Shown here: positions 1-53,766 of the stretch, one piece after another
How positions within the stretch are numbered: the first letter of the stretch is position 1
Layout of the letters: every line of letters begins with the position of its first letter
The notes under the pieces: model-generated
Seen by the model: the letters and a program-made list of their open reading frames with translations, nothing else
What the model was told of the DNA's origin: nothing
Database searches by the model: none
Sequence record: OP172784
Length of the DNA: 64,000 nucleotides
Direction: 5' to 3' (one strand)
Source: Escherichia phage ECO07P1
Position numbers and translations under genes: made by a program

Positions 1-396
1 CAGGCCTTTAATTTCGACTTCTTTTGTTACGGTTTTAGCGTCACGAGCATATTGGCGAACAACAGCGCTCTTTTTATACTCTGCTGGTTTTCCACCAGTA
101 ATTTCGTTCCCTTGCCCAGCAGCAATGCTTTGCCAGTCAACAAACTTCTGGCGAGCATCATGTGCCTCATCGTTCATTACTGTAACAGTCCAGTCATCGA
201 ATGTACGATCGCCTGCTACGTTAATTTTACGGTTCATAAATCCGACTGGAATTTTTTCTACAATACCAGCTGGTAAAGCAGTGGCTTTACATTGAAACGT
301 AAAATTTTGTCCAAGATAAGAAATTTCTACTTGGAATAAGTTAGGTCGAGCAAAATCACCAGATTCAAACGCTCGTGTTACATCATCTACAAACAT
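1..396 (-). CDS. 19: tail tube protein gp19, N-terminal ~132 codons (rest of gene outside window)
   Basis: Minus-strand translation from ATG at 396 reads MFVDDVTRAFESGDFARPNLFQVEISYLGQNF; frame open to window edge; TATAAATA late motif upstream. Confidence 0.85.
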   Translation of the reverse strand, partial: MFVDDVTRAFESGDFARPNLFQVEISYLGQNFTFQCKATALPAGIVEKIPVGFMNRKINVAGDRTFDDWTVTVMNDEAHDARQKFVDWQSIAAGQGNEITGGKPAEYKKSAVVRQYARDAKTVTKEVEIKGL

Positions 397-11781: not shown

Positions 11782-13589
11782 TATGCAATCCTTATCCAAC
11801 GATAAACTGTAATATATGGTTGAATGTTAGTTATTGATGTTGGCGGAGTGTGAGTAGAGTTAGTAGATGCTTTAGCTTCACGGTATTTCGTGTAAACTGG
11901 ACCGGATTCATCTGGATCGTATTGACATCCACCAACAATGACTGATCCATTTTCATCAACTATTAGAACTTCTTCATCTGTTTCAGTTGCAGGAAGATTA
12001 GCATTTTCCAATGTAACAGAAGTAGAACCGCCTGTTCCACCTGCAGTATGTGAAGGATTTCCACCCGAATCTAAATCGTTGTTATTTAGAGCAAAGTTAG
12101 GGTCCGAAATATCTTCATTCCATCCAACTAAAACTTTTCCTTGCCCAAATAATTTCCATGAGCCGAATCCCATATATGTAACAGGGTTATTTGGATTAAC
12201 AGCGTTTTCATATATAGTTCCAATAGGATAAATCGTATCAAAGATATTTGAAACAGCATTAAATTCGCGTTGATAGGATTGAACTGCTTCTACATTTGGC
12301 CAACCAATTTTATCGAAGTCTGTTAAATTTACATCACCTGAAATATCTACTCCCGGTCCTTGCGATACATAGAGATTATCAGTTTCATCAATAATCTCAT
12401 CTTTTGTTAATAATGTACCTAAATCATTATTAAACCAGGTGATATTGATAATGTCACCATGCTCAAATACTCTATCGAAATGTAAAATTTCCGGTATGCC
12501 GTTTTCGTCAGTTTCAACTGAATAGTCGGTATGAGACTGTTCCCAAGTTCCACCTAAAACAGAGCATTCTACTTCATCGTCTGAATCGGCACCAACACAA
12601 TGAAATAATGGCATTCCAACTGTTCCAGCCAATTCTTGTAAAATTCCATTAAAACGAACCTCAAGAGAATTAGGATTAATAGGTTCACCTGGAATTAATC
12701 CAAAAGCTGAAAATGGAATTGATTTCATTGTTGATAAATCAGTAACGTAAATGCTTCCTTCTAAAGAAGTTTTTGACGTTAATTTTGAATCTAACAGTCT
12801 AATTTGGCGTCTTGTATATGAACTTCTCCATTGTGATACACCATCCATAAATGTTTCAATTTGAACAGTGTCGCCAATATTACAAGGCTGTCTTAATCGA
12901 ATATTAAATCCATCAAGAGGAACTAATTCGCCTTCATTTTCGCCCGGAGAGCCAAAATCACTGTTTTCACTAAATACATCGCCGTAATACAATTCGTTAC
13001 CACGATGTTTTACTCTGATGTTATTTACATTATAACTAGTTCCACGGAAAACATCTAAAAAGTCTGTTTGTCCTTGGACTTCGACTAAAAATTCTTTACG
13101 AGCTACATTACTAATGTCTGAACTGGTAATTTTGTCAATTTGTTTATTTTTGACATATTCCCAACGTCCTGGGGCGCAATACACTAATTCCAAATCGCTG
13201 AATTGAACATTAATTTCAACTGGTACTGCAGAACCTTTAATCGTATCGCCGGAAGCAGCTACTAGCGTAACTGGGTTAACGTTCCATGTAGCAAATACGT
13301 CTCTAGCTCTAATTACTTTGTTGTAATCATTGACAGTTCCTTTTGGAAGATTTATAGTTACTCTTCCAGAAGAGGTATTAATAGCGTATGATTTTCCCCA
13401 TTCGGCTTTTAGTGTTTGGCCAGATGAAGCATCATAAGTTTTCCAGGCACCGGCTGAATATGGAACATCTCCATCACCGAGCTCGTAATAAAGCTCATCA
13501 AAGTTTTCATTTATTTTTATACCACCTTTACGCAGGTAGTCACCGGTACCATCATCAACAACATTACCGATATTAATATTTTGTTTCAT
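11781..13589 (-). CDS. 10: baseplate wedge protein gp10
   Basis: 602 aa matches T4 gp10; synteny. Confidence 0.88.
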
Positions 13590-47487: not shown

Positions 47488-47498
47488 ATCAACACAAA

Positions 47499-47522
47499 GG
47501 GGACCCTAGAGGTCCCCTTTTT
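47499..47522 (+). terminator. rho-independent terminator
   Basis: GGGGACCCTAGAGGTCCCC then TTTTT. Confidence 0.75.
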
Positions 47523-47578: not shown

Positions 47579-47615
47579 ACAACTATCAACTACTGATACA
47601 GATTTGGAGAATAAA

Positions 47616-48584
47616 ATGAAAACTGTAACTATCAATAAGGGTATCTACTTCGGTAAAGAAATCTCTGGAACTTTTGAGCTCTTAGGCGAATGGTTCCCAG
47701 ATAATGCTCCGGTAGATGCACAAGGAGATGGTAAAGTTTTTGTTGAAATTGACGGTAAACGTCGCGGTGTTTGGGTTTACAAATCAGATATTTCATATGA
47801 TGGTGTAAAAGTTGAAGAAGTTAAAGAATCATATGAAGATATGAAAACCCGCATTAATAAAAGATTTAATGTTATGGGAATGATGACGAATGGTATTATT
47901 AATGGAAATATTCGTTCATTAATTATCTCTGGCGCAGCAGGTATTGGTAAAACGTATTCTTTAGATAAAGCTTTAAATAAAGCAAATGATAATGGATACA
48001 TTGAATATAAAAGCATTAATGGTAAAATCTCTGGTATTGGTCTTTATGAGCAGCTTTGGAATAATCGTGAAGAGAACTCTGTCCTTTTGATTGATGATGT
48101 GGATGTTTTCTCTGATATGGACATTCTTAATCTTCTAAAAGCTGCTCTGGACACTGGAGAGACCCGTAAAGTCTGCTGGAGCACTGCATCTTCTTACTTA
48201 GAAGAAAAAGGCATTGACCGTGAGTTTGAATTTAAAGGAACGATTGTTTTTATCACAAACGTTGACATTGACCGCGAATTAGACCGTGGTACTAAACTTG
48301 CTCCACACTTACAAGCATTGGTGTCCCGCTCAGTTTATTTGGATTTGGGTGTTCACACTAATGAAGAAATTATGGTCAGGGTTGAAGATGTTATTCTTTC
48401 AACTGACATGATGCAAAAGCGCGGTCTTTCTGATGAAGAAACTTATAAAGCATTATCATGGATGAAAGTCAATGTTAATCGTTTACGCAATGTTTCACTG
48501 CGTACTGCTCTTTATCTTGCTGACTTTATTATGACCGACAAAAACGGTTGGGAAGAAATTGCTGAGGTTACTCTTCTGAAATAA
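47616..48584 (+). CDS. P-loop ATPase
   Basis: Start MKTVTINKG after GGAGAA; Walker A GAAGIGKT, Walker B LLIDDVD. Confidence 0.6.
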   Translation: MKTVTINKGIYFGKEISGTFELLGEWFPDNAPVDAQGDGKVFVEIDGKRRGVWVYKSDISYDGVKVEEVKESYEDMKTRINKRFNVMGMMTNGIINGNIRSLIISGAAGIGKTYSLDKALNKANDNGYIEYKSINGKISGIGLYEQLWNNREENSVLLIDDVDVFSDMDILNLLKAALDTGETRKVCWSTASSYLEEKGIDREFEFKGTIVFITNVDIDRELDRGTKLAPHLQALVSRSVYLDLGVHTNEEIMVRVEDVILSTDMMQKRGLSDEETYKALSWMKVNVNRLRNVSLRTALYLADFIMTDKNGWEEIAEVTLLK

Positions 48585-48990: not shown

Positions 48991-49020
48991 GTTTACAAGA
49001 CTGTTCCTCTGTGGTACTAT
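48991..49020 (+). promoter_or_regulatory. T4-type early promoter
   Basis: GTTTAC-N18-TACTAT. Confidence 0.6.
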
Positions 49021-49048
49021 ACAACTATCAACTACGGAGGAACAGAAA

Positions 49049-49576
49049 ATGAACGCTAAAGATATTTTCAACTTGGTAAATTACAATGATGGTAAATTTA
49101 AATCTGAAGCACAAAGCAAGTTCTTTAACGACATCTCAATCGGAGGTGAAATCACTGTTGATGGAGGACAAATTTACAAATCCCGTTGGAATTGGATCGT
49201 TATTATTGATGAGATTGGTATTGTAGAAATTTACAAGAATACGAATAAAAATCGTACATTACATTGGTCTCGTGATACTAACGAACAGTACAAAAAGGAT
49301 AAAGCATCTAAATTATCTCGTGTAACTCAAGAAGATATTGAGTTTATCAAGAAAGATATTTTAATGTATGATAACTTAATTGCTGAAGAACAAGCTGTTA
49401 TTGATAAATTTGATGAGATTAAAGCTTCTCGTGAAATTCCTGATTTTATGAAAGAATCAGTAAATGAACGATACTCTCTCATTTCAGAGCGTATTGAAAC
49501 TTACAAAAAGCAAAGAGCTGAACGCCAAAATACTCTTCGGAAGTTTGAAGAACGGTTAAAGACGGTACTCGCATAA
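49049..49576 (+). CDS. hypothetical protein
   Basis: 175 aa; early promoter upstream; C-terminal helical basic tail. Confidence 0.55.
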   Translation: MNAKDIFNLVNYNDGKFKSEAQSKFFNDISIGGEITVDGGQIYKSRWNWIVIIDEIGIVEIYKNTNKNRTLHWSRDTNEQYKKDKASKLSRVTQEDIEFIKKDILMYDNLIAEEQAVIDKFDEIKASREIPDFMKESVNERYSLISERIETYKKQRAERQNTLRKFEERLKTVLA

Positions 49577-49577
49577 C

Positions 49578-49602
49578 CGCTTTATACCAAGGATGGTATA
49601 AT
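49578..49602 (+). promoter_or_regulatory. MotA-type middle promoter candidate
   Basis: CGCTTTA (MotA-box-like), 12-nt spacer, TATAAT. Confidence 0.4.
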
Positions 49603-49631
49603 GGTTCTAAGCCCTTTTAATTGAGATTATT

Positions 49632-50039
49632 ATGAAACAGTTGATAATTAAAAGATTGAATTTATTGATATGTTGTTTATGTGTAGTAGTTGCATACGGT
49701 TATTACGCAATTAATGATTATATGCATTATAAAGATTATGATGTTACTGTAGTTAATACCATTACAGGAACACAAGGAAAAGGGTCTAGTTTATCGTTTA
49801 TTGCCGTATATGAACTTAAAGACGGTTATAGATTTAGTGAATATATTTCCCCAGAGATGTATTCTTCAATAGAAAAAGGTGATAATATTACTGTAAGTTT
49901 ACGTCCTTTCGACGTAAAACAGACAATGTTTGATAATATTGTTTGGTTCTTTGGGATGGTATTAGTTCAATCCGTGTGTGGCGCTTATGTAGTCTGTTCA
50001 ATCATATTCTGTGTATTTAGTAAAATTGAAATTGAGTGA
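49632..50039 (+). CDS. membrane protein (N- and C-terminal TM segments)
   Basis: 135 aa; hydrophobic LLICCLCVVVAYGYYAI and WFFGMVLVQSVCGAYVVCSIIF; MotA-type promoter upstream. Confidence 0.55.
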   Translation: MKQLIIKRLNLLICCLCVVVAYGYYAINDYMHYKDYDVTVVNTITGTQGKGSSLSFIAVYELKDGYRFSEYISPEMYSSIEKGDNITVSLRPFDVKQTMFDNIVWFFGMVLVQSVCGAYVVCSIIFCVFSKIEIE

Positions 50040-50046
50040 GGAAAAT

Positions 50047-50937
50047 ATGTCAGTGGTAATTAATAATGTCAATGCAGTAATTAAATCTTTAGTTAATAAA
50101 AAAATGATGAATGAATGGACTGTATTTCGTCGTGGAGAGCCAGATAAATTTTTTCATAGATTTAACCCAACTTTGGATTTGAATGTTATCGACAAAGATG
50201 TTCATGCAGAAATTTTAGATAAGTTTAAAGTTGATATTGGATTTGGATTAGAAAAACATTTACAGCGAACAAGCGGATCTGGAATGAGTTTATCTAATCG
50301 CATTATGAAAGCCCTTAATAAAATTGGAGCATTGTCTCGTATTAATGCGAGTGAAATTCTTCGTAATTATAATAAAGGATATGACCTTTATGGTCGACTA
50401 ATGCCGAAATTATCATTCGATCAAATGATTGCGGATTTGTGGGAAAATCAACGACGATTATTAGCATTAGGCGCTCGATTAGCTAAAGGTCTAGATAAAC
50501 AAATGATTTTTAAGACCAATAATACAGAAGACCTTAAATGCTTTAAATTTAGTATTCGTGGAGATGATTATTACATCAGAGCTCACTCTACAGATTATGT
50601 CAATATGGGGCATCATCTCTGTTTAGCTTTTGAAGTTTTAAAAGAAGCTGGAACATTAGAATATTCATCTGGTGCTAAATGCCCTATTGGTTCAAGTTGT
50701 ATTTTAATTTATCGCCCGGATGAATTCAGTTCAACTAAATTGCCTACAAAACCTGTACCGGTTCGTAGTAACGAAAAACATTCTGAACAAATTGATTATT
50801 TTAATAAGCAGATTGAAGAGCTGAATATTTCTATTCAACAATATGACGATGAAATTTTCAGACTATCTGGATTGAGTAGTAAAGCTAAATCTGAGCGTGA
50901 AAAGTTAATTAAAATTGTTGATTTACTTAAATCTTAA
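50047..50937 (+). CDS. hypothetical protein with C-terminal coiled-coil tail
   Basis: Start MSVVINNVNAV after GAGTGAGGAAAAT; last ~45 aa heptad-like. Confidence 0.55.
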   Translation: MSVVINNVNAVIKSLVNKKMMNEWTVFRRGEPDKFFHRFNPTLDLNVIDKDVHAEILDKFKVDIGFGLEKHLQRTSGSGMSLSNRIMKALNKIGALSRINASEILRNYNKGYDLYGRLMPKLSFDQMIADLWENQRRLLALGARLAKGLDKQMIFKTNNTEDLKCFKFSIRGDDYYIRAHSTDYVNMGHHLCLAFEVLKEAGTLEYSSGAKCPIGSSCILIYRPDEFSSTKLPTKPVPVRSNEKHSEQIDYFNKQIEELNISIQQYDDEIFRLSGLSSKAKSEREKLIKIVDLLKS

Positions 50938-50945
50938 GGAACACT

Positions 50946-51974
50946 ATGAAAACTCGTTCTCAAATTGAAGATATGGTTCGTAATGCCAGCTATACTCGTG
51001 ATGTTATGACATTTTTGTGTGAAAATAATTTAGACCCTGATAAAGTTAATCGTGTTATTCATCACTTTAAGTATACGAATAGCAGTGAATGGGTGCGTAA
51101 TTTTAGTAAAGCAGGGTATATTACACAAATGACGGCTCGTGAGCAGCTCACCGATTTCTGTAAAACTATTGATTATAAAAATCCTCTATTTGTTCAAGGC
51201 GTTGGTCAAAGTAAGGTCGATTTATCATCTGGATTTTTTAATCCAAATCATTATCGTATTGAATGGAGATTTATTGCTCTGTTCCGTAAACAATTAAAGC
51301 AAATTTTGTCTACTGCTAGTCGATTAAAAGGCTCTGATATTAACTTAAAGAACCTGAAATTTGATGGTTATACTCTTCAGATGGAAGTAAGACCATTAAA
51401 AGAAAATAATAGAACTGCACGAATTAGCTTTAAACCTAATACAAAAAATTCTCTTTCAATTTGCGAATGCCTTAAATCACAGTTAACAGAAGCATTTAAG
51501 TATATGGATGTTGTTGCCGCTGTTCAGTCTAAGATTTTACCTCGTTTTGAGCGAAATTGGGAACATACAACAACGTATGAACTTGATATGATCGTTTCAT
51601 TTAAATACGATTTTTTGAGAAAGGACGAAGTCACGCAAGAGAAAAAGCAGGAAGTGCAAGATAACTTAAATTTAAATTTATCCAATTACTCATCAAACGA
51701 TCCTAAATTTTGGATGTATAGTTCAGGTAATAAGGATGCATGGAAATTCAATAAAGTGAATTTTCTTCCTGATGAAAATCCGAGTCTTAAACCTGTTGAA
51801 AAATGGCATGCTGATGCGATTGAGAAGTCTCTTAAGGCAGTAGATGATGAACTCGTTAAAGCAACTAATGAAGTGTTAGAAGCTGAAAAGATGCTAGAAA
51901 AAGCTCAAGAAAAAGTCAAAAATCTTACGAAGCAACGTTCTAAACTGAACAATGCACTAAATGCACTAAACTAG
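50946..51974 (+). CDS. hypothetical protein with C-terminal coiled-coil tail
   Basis: 342 aa; C-terminus ...EAEKMLEKAQEKVKNLTKQRSKLNNALNALN. Confidence 0.55.
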   Translation: MKTRSQIEDMVRNASYTRDVMTFLCENNLDPDKVNRVIHHFKYTNSSEWVRNFSKAGYITQMTAREQLTDFCKTIDYKNPLFVQGVGQSKVDLSSGFFNPNHYRIEWRFIALFRKQLKQILSTASRLKGSDINLKNLKFDGYTLQMEVRPLKENNRTARISFKPNTKNSLSICECLKSQLTEAFKYMDVVAAVQSKILPRFERNWEHTTTYELDMIVSFKYDFLRKDEVTQEKKQEVQDNLNLNLSNYSSNDPKFWMYSSGNKDAWKFNKVNFLPDENPSLKPVEKWHADAIEKSLKAVDDELVKATNEVLEAEKMLEKAQEKVKNLTKQRSKLNNALNALN

Positions 51975-52004
51975 TTTACTTTGCCACAAGGATGTGGTAT
52001 AATG
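51975..52004 (+). promoter_or_regulatory. T4-type early promoter
   Basis: GTTTAC-N18-TATAAT. Confidence 0.65.
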
Positions 52005-52031
52005 TTCTTACTTTCTACTGAGGAGATTAAT

Positions 52032-52958
52032 ATGACTCGTAAACATTATATTGATTATTTTGATAGTCTTATTACTAAACATCGTAATTATCAGATAGGA
52101 CACAGAGCAGTAATCAATAATATTCTTCGTGATTTTTTAGACTATATTGGGTGGGAAAACCATATTTGTAAAGATACACAAAATGCATATTCACATTCTC
52201 TTGGTTCTTTGCTAGAGTGGTTCAAACGTTCCCGATTACTATCTTCTGTGATAGCTCGTGATAACATTAAAAACTTTATGAAGCCGAGCTTTATTAAATC
52301 TGAGACATCTATAACTGATTTGGTTGAATTTACTATTGTTAACGATGTTAAAAAGACCCGTTTGGCTGATTGGTTATCTACCATTCCTGAAACTAAATTT
52401 GCTGATAAATTTGCTTGTCAATTCAATGACCAAGTGAATATGCTTTTTAAGCATGCTCGCAAACTATTTACCGCAGGCGATGATCGTACAAATAAAGTTC
52501 ATGTTAAAGATTGGGTTACTGCAGTATTCAAACCAACCGGTAATGGTAACGCATCATTATCAATTGATATCCAGGTTCCTTATTATTACTCACGTAATCT
52601 CGGCACCATGACAGCTAGAGAAATTAATAAGCATAACAAAACTATTCGTTCGTTGTCTTATAAACTCTGCACGATGGTGGAGATGATGGACGTAGTGGAA
52701 ATGTATGATGAAACCGAAGATAATAGTTCAATGTTATACAGTTCACGCATTTTAATTAAACTGAAGAATCCTAATACATATAAGCCAGTTGTAAAAGAAC
52801 CTAAAGTAGAAAAGGTTGATAACTTGAGCGAAGAACGTGAATACCTCAAATCTCGACTAGTTGAAGTTGAAGCCCAGATTGCCGAACACACCAAATTGTT
52901 AAAAGCTCTTAATGCAAAAGCAAATGGTTTACGCAATGCTATTGAGGTATTGAAATGA
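52032..52958 (+). CDS. hypothetical protein with C-terminal coiled-coil tail
   Basis: Start MTRKHYIDYF after GAGGAG; C-terminus ...[30 protein letters not shown]. Confidence 0.55.
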   Translation: MTRKHYIDYFDSLITKHRNYQIGHRAVINNILRDFLDYIGWENHICKDTQNAYSHSLGSLLEWFKRSRLLSSVIARDNIKNFMKPSFIKSETSITDLVEFTIVNDVKKTRLADWLSTIPETKFADKFACQFNDQVNMLFKHARKLFTAGDDRTNKVHVKDWVTAVFKPTGNGNASLSIDIQVPYYYSRNLGTMTAREINKHNKTIRSLSYKLCTMVEMMDVVEMYDETEDNSSMLYSSRILIKLKNPNTYKPVVKEPKVEKVDNLSEEREYLKSRLVEVEAQIAEHTKLLKALNAKANGLRNAIEVLK

Positions 52959-53272
52959 AAAAGCGTCTATTAGAAGATATTGCAGCTTCAAGTAATTCCA
53001 GTCTAATTAAAATTATTATGGCTGGTGAAGAAGACGATATGGAAATGCGTGGAAAGATTCATGGTTGCGATGATTTAGACTTTAAACCTCCAGCCTGGGA
53101 TGCCATTATGGTTATGGTTGAACGCCGCGAAAGGGCTTCTAAGAATGTTCCGAACTGCCCAAAATGTGGTACTGAACAGGTTCAATTAATTCATTGGCAG
53201 ACTAGTAATCTTCGTTATAAATGTCGTCATTGCAAACACCGATTTAACCGAGAAGAAAATGACCAAGCGTAA
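52955..53272 (+). CDS. zinc-ribbon protein
   Basis: 105 aa; CPKCG...CRHCKH four-Cys ribbon. Confidence 0.55.
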
Positions 53273-53501
53273 AGAATATATGGAGATTGCTGAAAAGGCA
53301 GTCCGTGAATTAGCAATAGCGTATTATAATGAACATGGTAAATTTCCTGATAGATACAGCGTGCTTAAATCTGCTTTAACTCGTTCATATAAAAATATGC
53401 TATCAGAAGTAAGTGATATTATATACAAACATAAAGAACAAACGGGCCAAAGTCTTGATTACGACGAGACTTTTAAACAAGTACTAGGAATTAAGGAATA
53501 A
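53259..53501 (+). CDS. hypothetical protein
   Basis: 80 aa; overlapping start. Confidence 0.5.
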
Positions 53502-53502
53502 T

Positions 53503-53766
53503 ATGTTTAAAGTATATGGTTATGATAGCAACATCCACAAATGTGTGTATTGCGATAATGCAAAACGTCTCTTGACTGTGAAGAAACAGCCGTTTGAATT
53601 TATCAACATTATGCCTGAAAAAGGTGTTTTTGATGATGAGAAAATTGCTGAGCTTCTGACGAAACTAGGTCGTGATACTCAAATCGGATTGACGATGCCT
53701 CAGGTATTTGCTCCTGATGGAAGTCATATTGGTGGATTTGACCAATTGCGGGAATACTTTAAATGA
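53503..53766 (+). CDS. nrdC: glutaredoxin / thioredoxin NrdC
   Basis: 87 aa as T4 NrdC; active site CVYC near N-terminus. Confidence 0.85.
   Translation: MFKVYGYDSNIHKCVYCDNAKRLLTVKKQPFEFINIMPEKGVFDDEKIAELLTKLGRDTQIGLTMPQVFAPDGSHIGGFDQLREYFK

Follow-up and report, generated by a model that had tools for sequence, protein, structure and literature searches.

In the genome segment from Escherichia phage ECO07P1 analyzed here (sequence record OP172784), a small membrane protein gene is followed by three consecutive genes for proteins of about 300 residues, each of which ends in a heptad-repeat helix. The locus raises the question of why three neighboring proteins should carry the same kind of tail. 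An original prediction, made from the sequence alone, saw no obvious similarity between the three protein bodies and proposed that the tails let them dock onto a shared partner or hetero-oligomerize. We followed up this proposal in a window of 64,000 nucleotides, the whole stretch of DNA that was analyzed; coordinates below are those of the window, and the genes, tails, and promoters of the nrdC.8 to nrdC.3 stretch lie on the plus strand. The four genes make up an nrdC.7-nrdC.6-nrdC.5-nrdC.3 segment as found in T4-like phages. At a probability of roughly 0.6, our preferred explanation is that nrdC.3 through nrdC.6 are diverged tandem paralogs of a family confined to T4-like phages (Straboviridae), early and dispensable accessory genes whose products would be counter-defense or host-range binding proteins with an oligomerizing tail.

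All four predicted open reading frames (ORFs) are found, and comparison with the nrdC.x genes of T4-like phages pairs them one-to-one with the T4 annotation; the region 49000-53600 shows 97% DNA identity to Tequatrovirus (T4-like) genomes. The first gene, nrdC.7 (49632..50039, 135 residues), is 90% identical to T4 NrdC.7 and matches PHROG 2547 with an expect value (E) of 2e-67. The second, nrdC.6 (50047..50937, 296 residues), matches PHROG 2257 (E 2e-151), is 97% identical to its ortholog T4 NrdC.6 across the first 259 residues, and has homologs that bear the newer Pfam family PF26899. The third, nrdC.5 (50946..51974, 342 residues), is the ortholog of the T4 anti-Dsr1 gene, with 95% identity to T4 NrdC.5 over the full length, the same neighbors, the same tail, and no substantial difference; the hidden Markov model (HMM) for Pfam DUF7235 (PF23882) covers it in full, residues 1-342, at E 6e-128 and 427 bits against a cut-off of 30. 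The fourth, nrdC.3 (52032..52958, 308 residues), matches phrog_1435 over residues 1-308 (E 8e-113) and is the ortholog of T4 NrdC.3, to which it is 63% identical; all its close homologs bear the newer Pfam family PF26897, which together with PHROG 1435 also takes in T4 NrdC.4. The PHROG families matched by the four window proteins, 2547, 2257, 2351, and 1435, are all of unknown function. These genes are already catalogued as T4 ORFs, and one of them has a T4 ortholog of published function, so that the locus cannot count as a discovery. Besides its different nrdC.3 allele, T4 has an nrdC.4 gene, which the window genome lacks, and its reference nrdC.6 loses by frameshift the tail that the window nrdC.6 retains.

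The tails occupy 50749..50934 in nrdC.6 (residues 235-296, from a KPV motif to the C-terminus), 51789..51971 in nrdC.5 (residues 282-342, KPVEKWHADAIEK...KLNNALNALN), and 52782..52955 in nrdC.3 (residues 251-308, beginning KPVVKEPKVEK). Both tail strings quoted in the original prediction were located, one in nrdC.5 and one in nrdC.3, and the predicted coiled coils were borne out, although at about 50-60 residues the tails are longer than the 40 or so first supposed. In our own heptad scan, which used 28-residue windows and 200 shuffles of each protein as a control, the top window lay in or overlapped the tail in every case: residues 246-273 of nrdC.6 (score equaled by 1 of 200 shuffles), 314-341 of nrdC.5 (by none of 200), and 278-305 of nrdC.3 (by 2 of 200). 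Each tail holds a single register through seven to eight uninterrupted heptads, with Leu, Ile, Val, or Ala at the a and d positions and, like soluble coiled coils, a high charge on the b, c, e, f, and g faces, and finishes at or adjoining the last residue of the protein. The three are alike in length, in register, and in the ending R..L..A[LI]..LK, and outside the a and d positions each paralog has a tail sequence of its own. A [KE]P[VI] motif stands 54-62 residues before the C-terminus in most of the 15 representatives of the wider family that we aligned. In comparisons between genera, conservation is highest in the tail and the central core and lowest in the N-terminal region; the nrdC.6 tail is one of the best-conserved parts of the family. 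Structure modeling by AlphaFold2 (AF2) likewise gave helical tails, a single helix over residues 283-341 of nrdC.5, with predicted local distance difference test (pLDDT) values of 78-93 by block, and two helices, 242-273 and 278-295, in nrdC.6 (block pLDDT 80-89), following a low-confidence linker at 227-243. The predicted order of body, linker, and heptad tail is shared, but the linker is Pro/Lys-rich only in nrdC.6 and nrdC.3; that of nrdC.5 runs to about 60 residues and is rich in Asn, Ser, Asp, and Lys.

As for the bodies, the absence of obvious similarity holds for plain BLAST and fails at the level of profiles. T4 and most of its relatives carry nrdC.4 (333 residues) between nrdC.5 and nrdC.3, and direct BLASTP among the paralogs detects the nrdC.3/nrdC.4 pair only (E 6e-7 over about 270 residues); the two share a PHROG, and hhalign joins them at 97.7% probability and E 1.6e-12. 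Through PHROG cross-hits the nrdC.3/4 family is connected with proteins that occur as single copies in T4-like phages of Klebsiella and Enterobacter. One of these, the Klebsiella protein Kle_324, matches phrog_31182 (9e-6), phrog_26858 (2.6e-5), and phrog_1435 (3.4e-3), with all of the matches in the body and all collinear. A merged profile of nrdC.3/4, Klebsiella, and Enterobacter sequences then aligns with the nrdC.5 family over 149 body columns at 95.6% probability (hhalign, E 1.1e-8), and the same profile, once the nrdC.5 family and a Yersinia-phage member are added, aligns with the nrdC.6 family over 115 columns at 87.5% (E 3.6e-6). Four unrelated proteins of 320-350 residues, used as controls, score no higher than 0.6%. 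In a local hmmsearch, five of five nrdC.6 orthologs rank right behind the training sequences and ahead of the noise.

An unsupervised MAFFT alignment of the 15 representatives brings the same helix motifs and a C-terminal L..hh.hLK into register in all of them. The aligned core has a first helix with invariant-like Ala and Leu, a second helix of the type hL....+ that ends in R/K-L..G.D in most members, and after it a beta hairpin, a helix with the pattern M..h (MDVV in nrdC.3 and nrdC.5), and beta strands. The columns conserved family-wide are limited to Ala, Leu, Met, and the terminal Leu-Lys, and no catalytic-looking conserved residue was seen in the alignment. From these comparisons there is good support for treating nrdC.3, nrdC.4, and nrdC.5 as paralogs, and nrdC.6 is probably a member of the same family, so that the three genes of the window do not appear to be unrelated genes that happen to be neighbors. 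The link that joins nrdC.3 through nrdC.6 into one superfamily is one that we infer here, while the databases keep separate families of unknown function. Common descent of the bodies accounts for the common tail with no need for a shared docking partner; the tail would most simply have been inherited from a common ancestor, and its being shared does not speak for convergence on one partner.

Structure models point to relatives beyond the T4 genus. The AF2 model of nrdC.6 is usable (pLDDT 78, predicted template modeling score 0.64) and has a helical N-terminal domain, a beta-beta-alpha-beta-beta core, a linker, and the coiled-coil tail; in the nrdC.5 model, whose mean pLDDT is 50.6, helices, beta-beta-alpha-beta-beta, linker, and long helix come in the same order. 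A Foldseek search of BFVD with the nrdC.6 model returned full-length proteins of 300-375 residues (E 4e-7 to 2e-3, 10-16% identity), all uncharacterized, from seven other T4-like phage groups with hosts in Enterobacter, Pectobacterium, Acinetobacter, Erwinia, Yersinia, and Klebsiella. Proteins of phages Mineola and Cronus were matched by both models, the nrdC.5 model being the poor one of pLDDT 50.6. Other matches of the nrdC.5 model, to proteins of about 130 residues named "tail completion" or "terminator", were weak and are not trusted. In loci that we fetched from other genera, proteins of similar size lie between nrdC.10 and nrdC and finish in helical tails some 50 residues long; distant T4-like genera hold one or two members of the family. 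On its own, the nrdC.5 family is a narrow one: its profile, run against 1.84 billion representatives, produced 13 hits, among them several fragments or artifacts, and revealed no bridge to other families. NCBIfam gave sub-threshold noise only, sequence searches of the PDB with nrdC.5, nrdC.3, and nrdC.6 gave nothing better than E 0.2, and no solved structure resembling the body was found.

Several points weigh against this picture of a single family with a common tail and role. Compared directly, family to family, in hhalign, nrdC.5 and nrdC.6 give matches that are collinear yet weak, with a probability of 17% or less (P about 1e-3), and the links to both depend on iterated, merged profiles. 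The nrdC.5 model is poor outside the tail because the alignment behind it is shallow, and with a poor model the comparison does not demonstrate fold identity directly. T4 nrdC.3, nrdC.4, and nrdC.5 are not among the top 50 Foldseek matches of the nrdC.6 model. The nrdC.6 tail contains a break with Gly and was modeled as two helices rather than one. Lastly, nrdC.5 alone in the family has a known experimental phenotype.

That phenotype is the best guide to function. A T4 clone with deletions fails on Escherichia coli strain ECOR17 owing to the sirtuin defense Dsr1, and infection of MG1655 carrying dsr1 is restored by a plasmid-borne copy of what the authors call the "uncharacterized early gene nrdC.5" (Srikant, Guegler, Laub, eLife 2022, PMC9391042); that article describes Dsr1 as likely depleting cytoplasmic nicotinamide adenine dinucleotide (NAD+), and we did not find in its text how far the evo-3 deletion of T4 reaches around nrdC.5. 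According to a 2026 preprint, the Dsr1 sensor recognizes the phage major capsid protein (PMC12803255). At 95% identity to T4 NrdC.5, the window protein would be expected to counteract Dsr1 as well. Our literature search found no paper on nrdC.3, nrdC.4, nrdC.6, or nrdC.7, nor on the mechanism of nrdC.5.

Taken with the family link, these reports suggest a working picture for the array. Each member would consist of a variable helical N-terminal region, a conserved core of a helix plus beta-beta-alpha-beta-beta, a flexible linker, and a C-terminal amphipathic helix some 50 residues long. The positions conserved across the whole family are all hydrophobic and structural, and the members are for that reason probably binding proteins and not enzymes; the variable regions may set target specificity, and the conserved coiled coil, judged from sequence and model, would make each protein oligomeric. 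As T4 nrdC.5 neutralizes the Dsr1 defense of the host, so nrdC.3, nrdC.4, and nrdC.6 may serve in counter-defense or host range by acting on other host proteins. In outcome nrdC.5 resembles DSAD1 of SPbeta, which disarms DSR2, a SIR2-domain, NAD+-depleting defense (PMC10973363, PMC11087589). The array as a whole resembles T4 gp49.2, TifA, AdfA, and the internal proteins in being early or accessory, dispensable in laboratory hosts, variable, and clustered; gp49.2, encoded a few genes downstream of nrdC, inhibits the OLD defense (PMC13096335). Those proteins, however, are small, single-domain, and unrelated in sequence, whereas the nrdC array consists of paralogs of about 300 residues with coiled-coil tails. 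The block nrdC.1-6 was lost spontaneously in T4 genome reduction (PMC9825161), and it is therefore dispensable in laboratory hosts.

The window genome itself records one change in the array. Its nrdC.4 has been removed by a recombination event that precisely joined the 5' end of nrdC.4 to that of nrdC.3, as read from the alignment, leaving the promoter, 5' untranslated region, and start codon of nrdC.4 (within 51975-52045) fused to the nrdC.3 coding sequence, with the junction at 52032..52042. The junction falls within an 8-bp stretch common to both genes, ACTCGTAA (52035-52042, codons 2-4), and the loss takes out about 1056 bp precisely: relatives match the 4601-bp query in two pieces that span about 5657 bp, in agreement with the gene table of phage BMB16. 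As a result nrdC.3 begins MTRK, where T4 has MKTRK, and an early promoter lies directly ahead of it. The query is matched in a single piece by phages LYE-01 and LF73P3, which therefore share the arrangement, so that at least two phages besides the window genome have it. The window nrdC.3 allele is rare, with no phage record at 95% identity or above and a best match of 93.5%. It is 81% identical to a Mosigvirus allele and 63-64% to that of T4, against which it reads as a mosaic, residues 1-60 being 90-100% identical and residues 90-270 only 33-60%.

Similar rearrangements occur elsewhere. Phage Manna encodes an in-frame chimera, nrdC.6(1-269)::nrdC.4(251-333), fused at a "DEI" microhomology (L013, 3215-4252). 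ACG-C40 keeps nrdC.6 as its sole copy next to an out-of-frame nrdC.5::nrdC.3 remnant (L012, 3805-4216), Pinarejo has lost the nrdC.6 body and kept the tail (L014, 3939-4152), and a 167-kb contig of phage length has an in-frame nrdC.5::nrdC.3 chimera (P0056). In the T4 reference genome, nrdC.6 (NC_000866, L001 about 12000-12160, minus strand) has a 1-nt deletion, GAGCTGAATATT to GAGCTGATATT, that ends the annotated protein at 275 residues, while another frame still encodes the coiled-coil tail without change; the deletion is either a recent mutation of the laboratory strain or a sequencing error. At the level of genera, Gaprivervirus and Dhakavirus have nrdC.6, an nrdC.5-like gene, and nrdC.4, with neither nrdC.3 nor nrdC.7, and a Mosigvirus has an nrdC.6-like gene and nrdC.3 only. 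Across phage records, nrdC.6 is counted 741 times, nrdC.3 653, nrdC.5 581, and nrdC.4 554. In Shigella phage Sf25 (MF327009), the matches to nrdC.5 and nrdC.4 are each split in two by about 250 extra bases, and nrdC.6 has an annotated length of 378 residues (P0092), which together suggest that the array has received insertions. A separate case is a 173-residue ORF on an 803-bp metagenome contig (P0201; L011, 120-641) that couples 120 N-terminal residues to an nrdC.5-like tail, nearly identical to the window nrdC.5 tail and 100% identical to the BMB16 allele. The N-terminal part has no match among 50,697 phage records. The ORF may place the tail on a new body or, given the single short contig and a body with no phage match, may be an assembly chimera.

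This record bears on the proposal from which we started, that three unrelated bodies carry a common coiled-coil tail in order to dock on a shared partner or form a hetero-oligomer. The likeness of the tails in length, register, and ending is what one would expect of it, as is the fact that within each family they rank with the best-conserved stretches. An nrdC.5-like protein also matches the phrog_26858 family, tail against tail, at E 4e-7, and nrdC.7, nrdC.6, and nrdC.5 are packed as in an operon, with gaps of only 7-8 nt. The shared architecture that prompted the proposal stands and even extends to nrdC.4 and to the single-copy relatives; what gives way is the premise of unrelated bodies, for with homologous bodies the shared tails follow from descent, and the tail sequences are distinct in each paralog except at a and d. 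Individual copies drop out independently in natural phages, distant genera contain only one or two members, a frameshift cuts off the T4 reference nrdC.6 before its tail, and the published rescue on Dsr1 cells was achieved by nrdC.5 from a plasmid. These four observations make obligate hetero-oligomerization of nrdC.3, nrdC.5, and nrdC.6 unlikely, and we consider the proposal as a whole, whether as a shared partner or as facultative mixing of the tails, improbable.

Less probable still is a membrane complex of nrdC.3, nrdC.5, and nrdC.6 with nrdC.7, serving superinfection exclusion or envelope modification, in which the tails would bind nrdC.7 or the membrane. Hydropathy agrees with the predicted membrane protein with N- and C-terminal transmembrane helices: nrdC.7 has hydrophobic stretches at residues 4-28 and 103-134, approximately (Kyte-Doolittle 19-residue mean above 1.6), flanking a domain of about 70 residues. 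Its gene lies immediately upstream of the array and is seemingly co-transcribed with it, and in an Enterobacter Karamvirus a gene of the nrdC.7 family (phrog_2547) lies downstream of the single family member, separated from it by about 250 bp and one small gene. Gaprivervirus, Dhakavirus, and Mosigvirus, however, have family members and no nrdC.7 at the corresponding position, where the first two carry an unrelated membrane protein of 71 residues; synteny does not support the link to the nrdC.7 family beyond Tequatrovirus and Karamvirus. The charged faces of the tails are those of soluble coiled coils, and the published nrdC.5 phenotype concerns Dsr1, which likely depletes NAD+ in the cytoplasm. 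We would regard nrdC.7 as a membrane protein that adjoins the family and is probably not tied to it in function.

The idea that nrdC.x proteins are thioredoxin-like or belong to nucleotide metabolism, for which database names and a location near nrdC, nrdD, and nrdG are all that speaks, can be set aside, as no thioredoxin, glutaredoxin, or Mur-ligase Pfam family matches at E 0.01 or better, the NCBIfam FolC match of nrdC.7 reaches just 16 bits against a cut-off of 163, and the topology of the nrdC.6 model differs from the thioredoxin fold. Many GenBank records nevertheless name nrdC.3 to nrdC.10 "thioredoxin" and nrdC.7 "Mur ligase domain-containing". These names seem to be artifacts that spread from the "nrdC.x" locus labels, the Mur ligase name possibly by way of a spurious FolC match like the one at 16 bits. 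With both sequence and model refuting the thioredoxin label, the analysis flags a widespread misannotation of nrdC.x genes.

Expression signals were assigned by eye from the T4 early and middle consensus. Early-type promoters of T4 combine GTTTAC, a spacer of 17 nt, and TGGTAyTAT or TATAAT. One such site precedes nrdC.8 (48992..49020; TTTACA, 17 nt, TACTAT, with TG in front), and transcription from it is likely to read through into nrdC.7, nrdC.6, and nrdC.5. Another (51975..52003; TTTACT, 17 nt, TATAAT, with TG in front) precedes nrdC.3 in the window, and nrdC.4 in T4 and BMB16. A middle-promoter-like site before nrdC.7 (49577..49602) has the MotA-box-like CCGCTTTA, 12 nt, and TATAAT; its box, CGCTTTA, appears to differ from TGCTTtA by one mismatch. 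To this extent the middle and early promoters of the original prediction are consistent with the sequence. A generic sigma-70 promoter scan gave 35 sites against 28 +/- 5 in shuffles and so no enrichment.

The neighbors of the region are nrdC.10, nrdC.9, and nrdC.8 on the 5' side and nrdC.2, nrdC.1, and nrdC on the 3' side, with endonuclease VII and nrdD farther on. The nrdC.8 gene (49049..49576, 175 residues, PHROG 2274, 98% identical to T4 NrdC.8) also encodes a helical, heptad-rich tail (top window 145-172, equaled by 3 of 200 shuffles), and was considered as a short family member and rejected, its matches to the family profile being at noise level only. The nrdC.10 product (47604-48584) is a P-loop nucleoside triphosphatase with weak AAA and STAND-like Pfam matches, and its gene is far more widespread than its neighbors, with 1311 phage records that include Vibrio, Aeromonas, Acinetobacter, and jumbo phages. 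Just upstream of the nrdC.10 early promoter, a perfect GC-rich hairpin with T runs on both strands (AAAGGGGACC...GGTCCCCTTT, 47496-47520) looks like a bidirectional terminator. The nrdC.2 product (52955-53272, 105 residues) has a C-terminal CxxC...CxxC zinc-ribbon signature, with Pfam zinc-ribbon matches below threshold.

The family link gives nrdC.5, a published anti-Dsr1 factor, three adjoining apparent paralogs and relatives throughout the T4-like phages. Together with the conserved tail, the superfamily link makes the neighbors of nrdC.5 candidates for counter-defense, and the natural deletions and chimeras of the array may bear on host-range differences among therapeutic T4-like phages. 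A bolder proposal, which we offer tentatively and with the odds against it, is that nrdC.3 through nrdC.6 and their single-copy relatives are one family of coiled-coil-oligomerized immune inhibitors, that each paralog has diversified in its variable regions to meet a different host defense sensor, Dsr1 in the case of nrdC.5, and that avidity conferred by the tail blocks oligomeric defense proteins. If this were true, host-range adaptation could be read directly from the copies gained and lost in the array and from the chimeras formed there.

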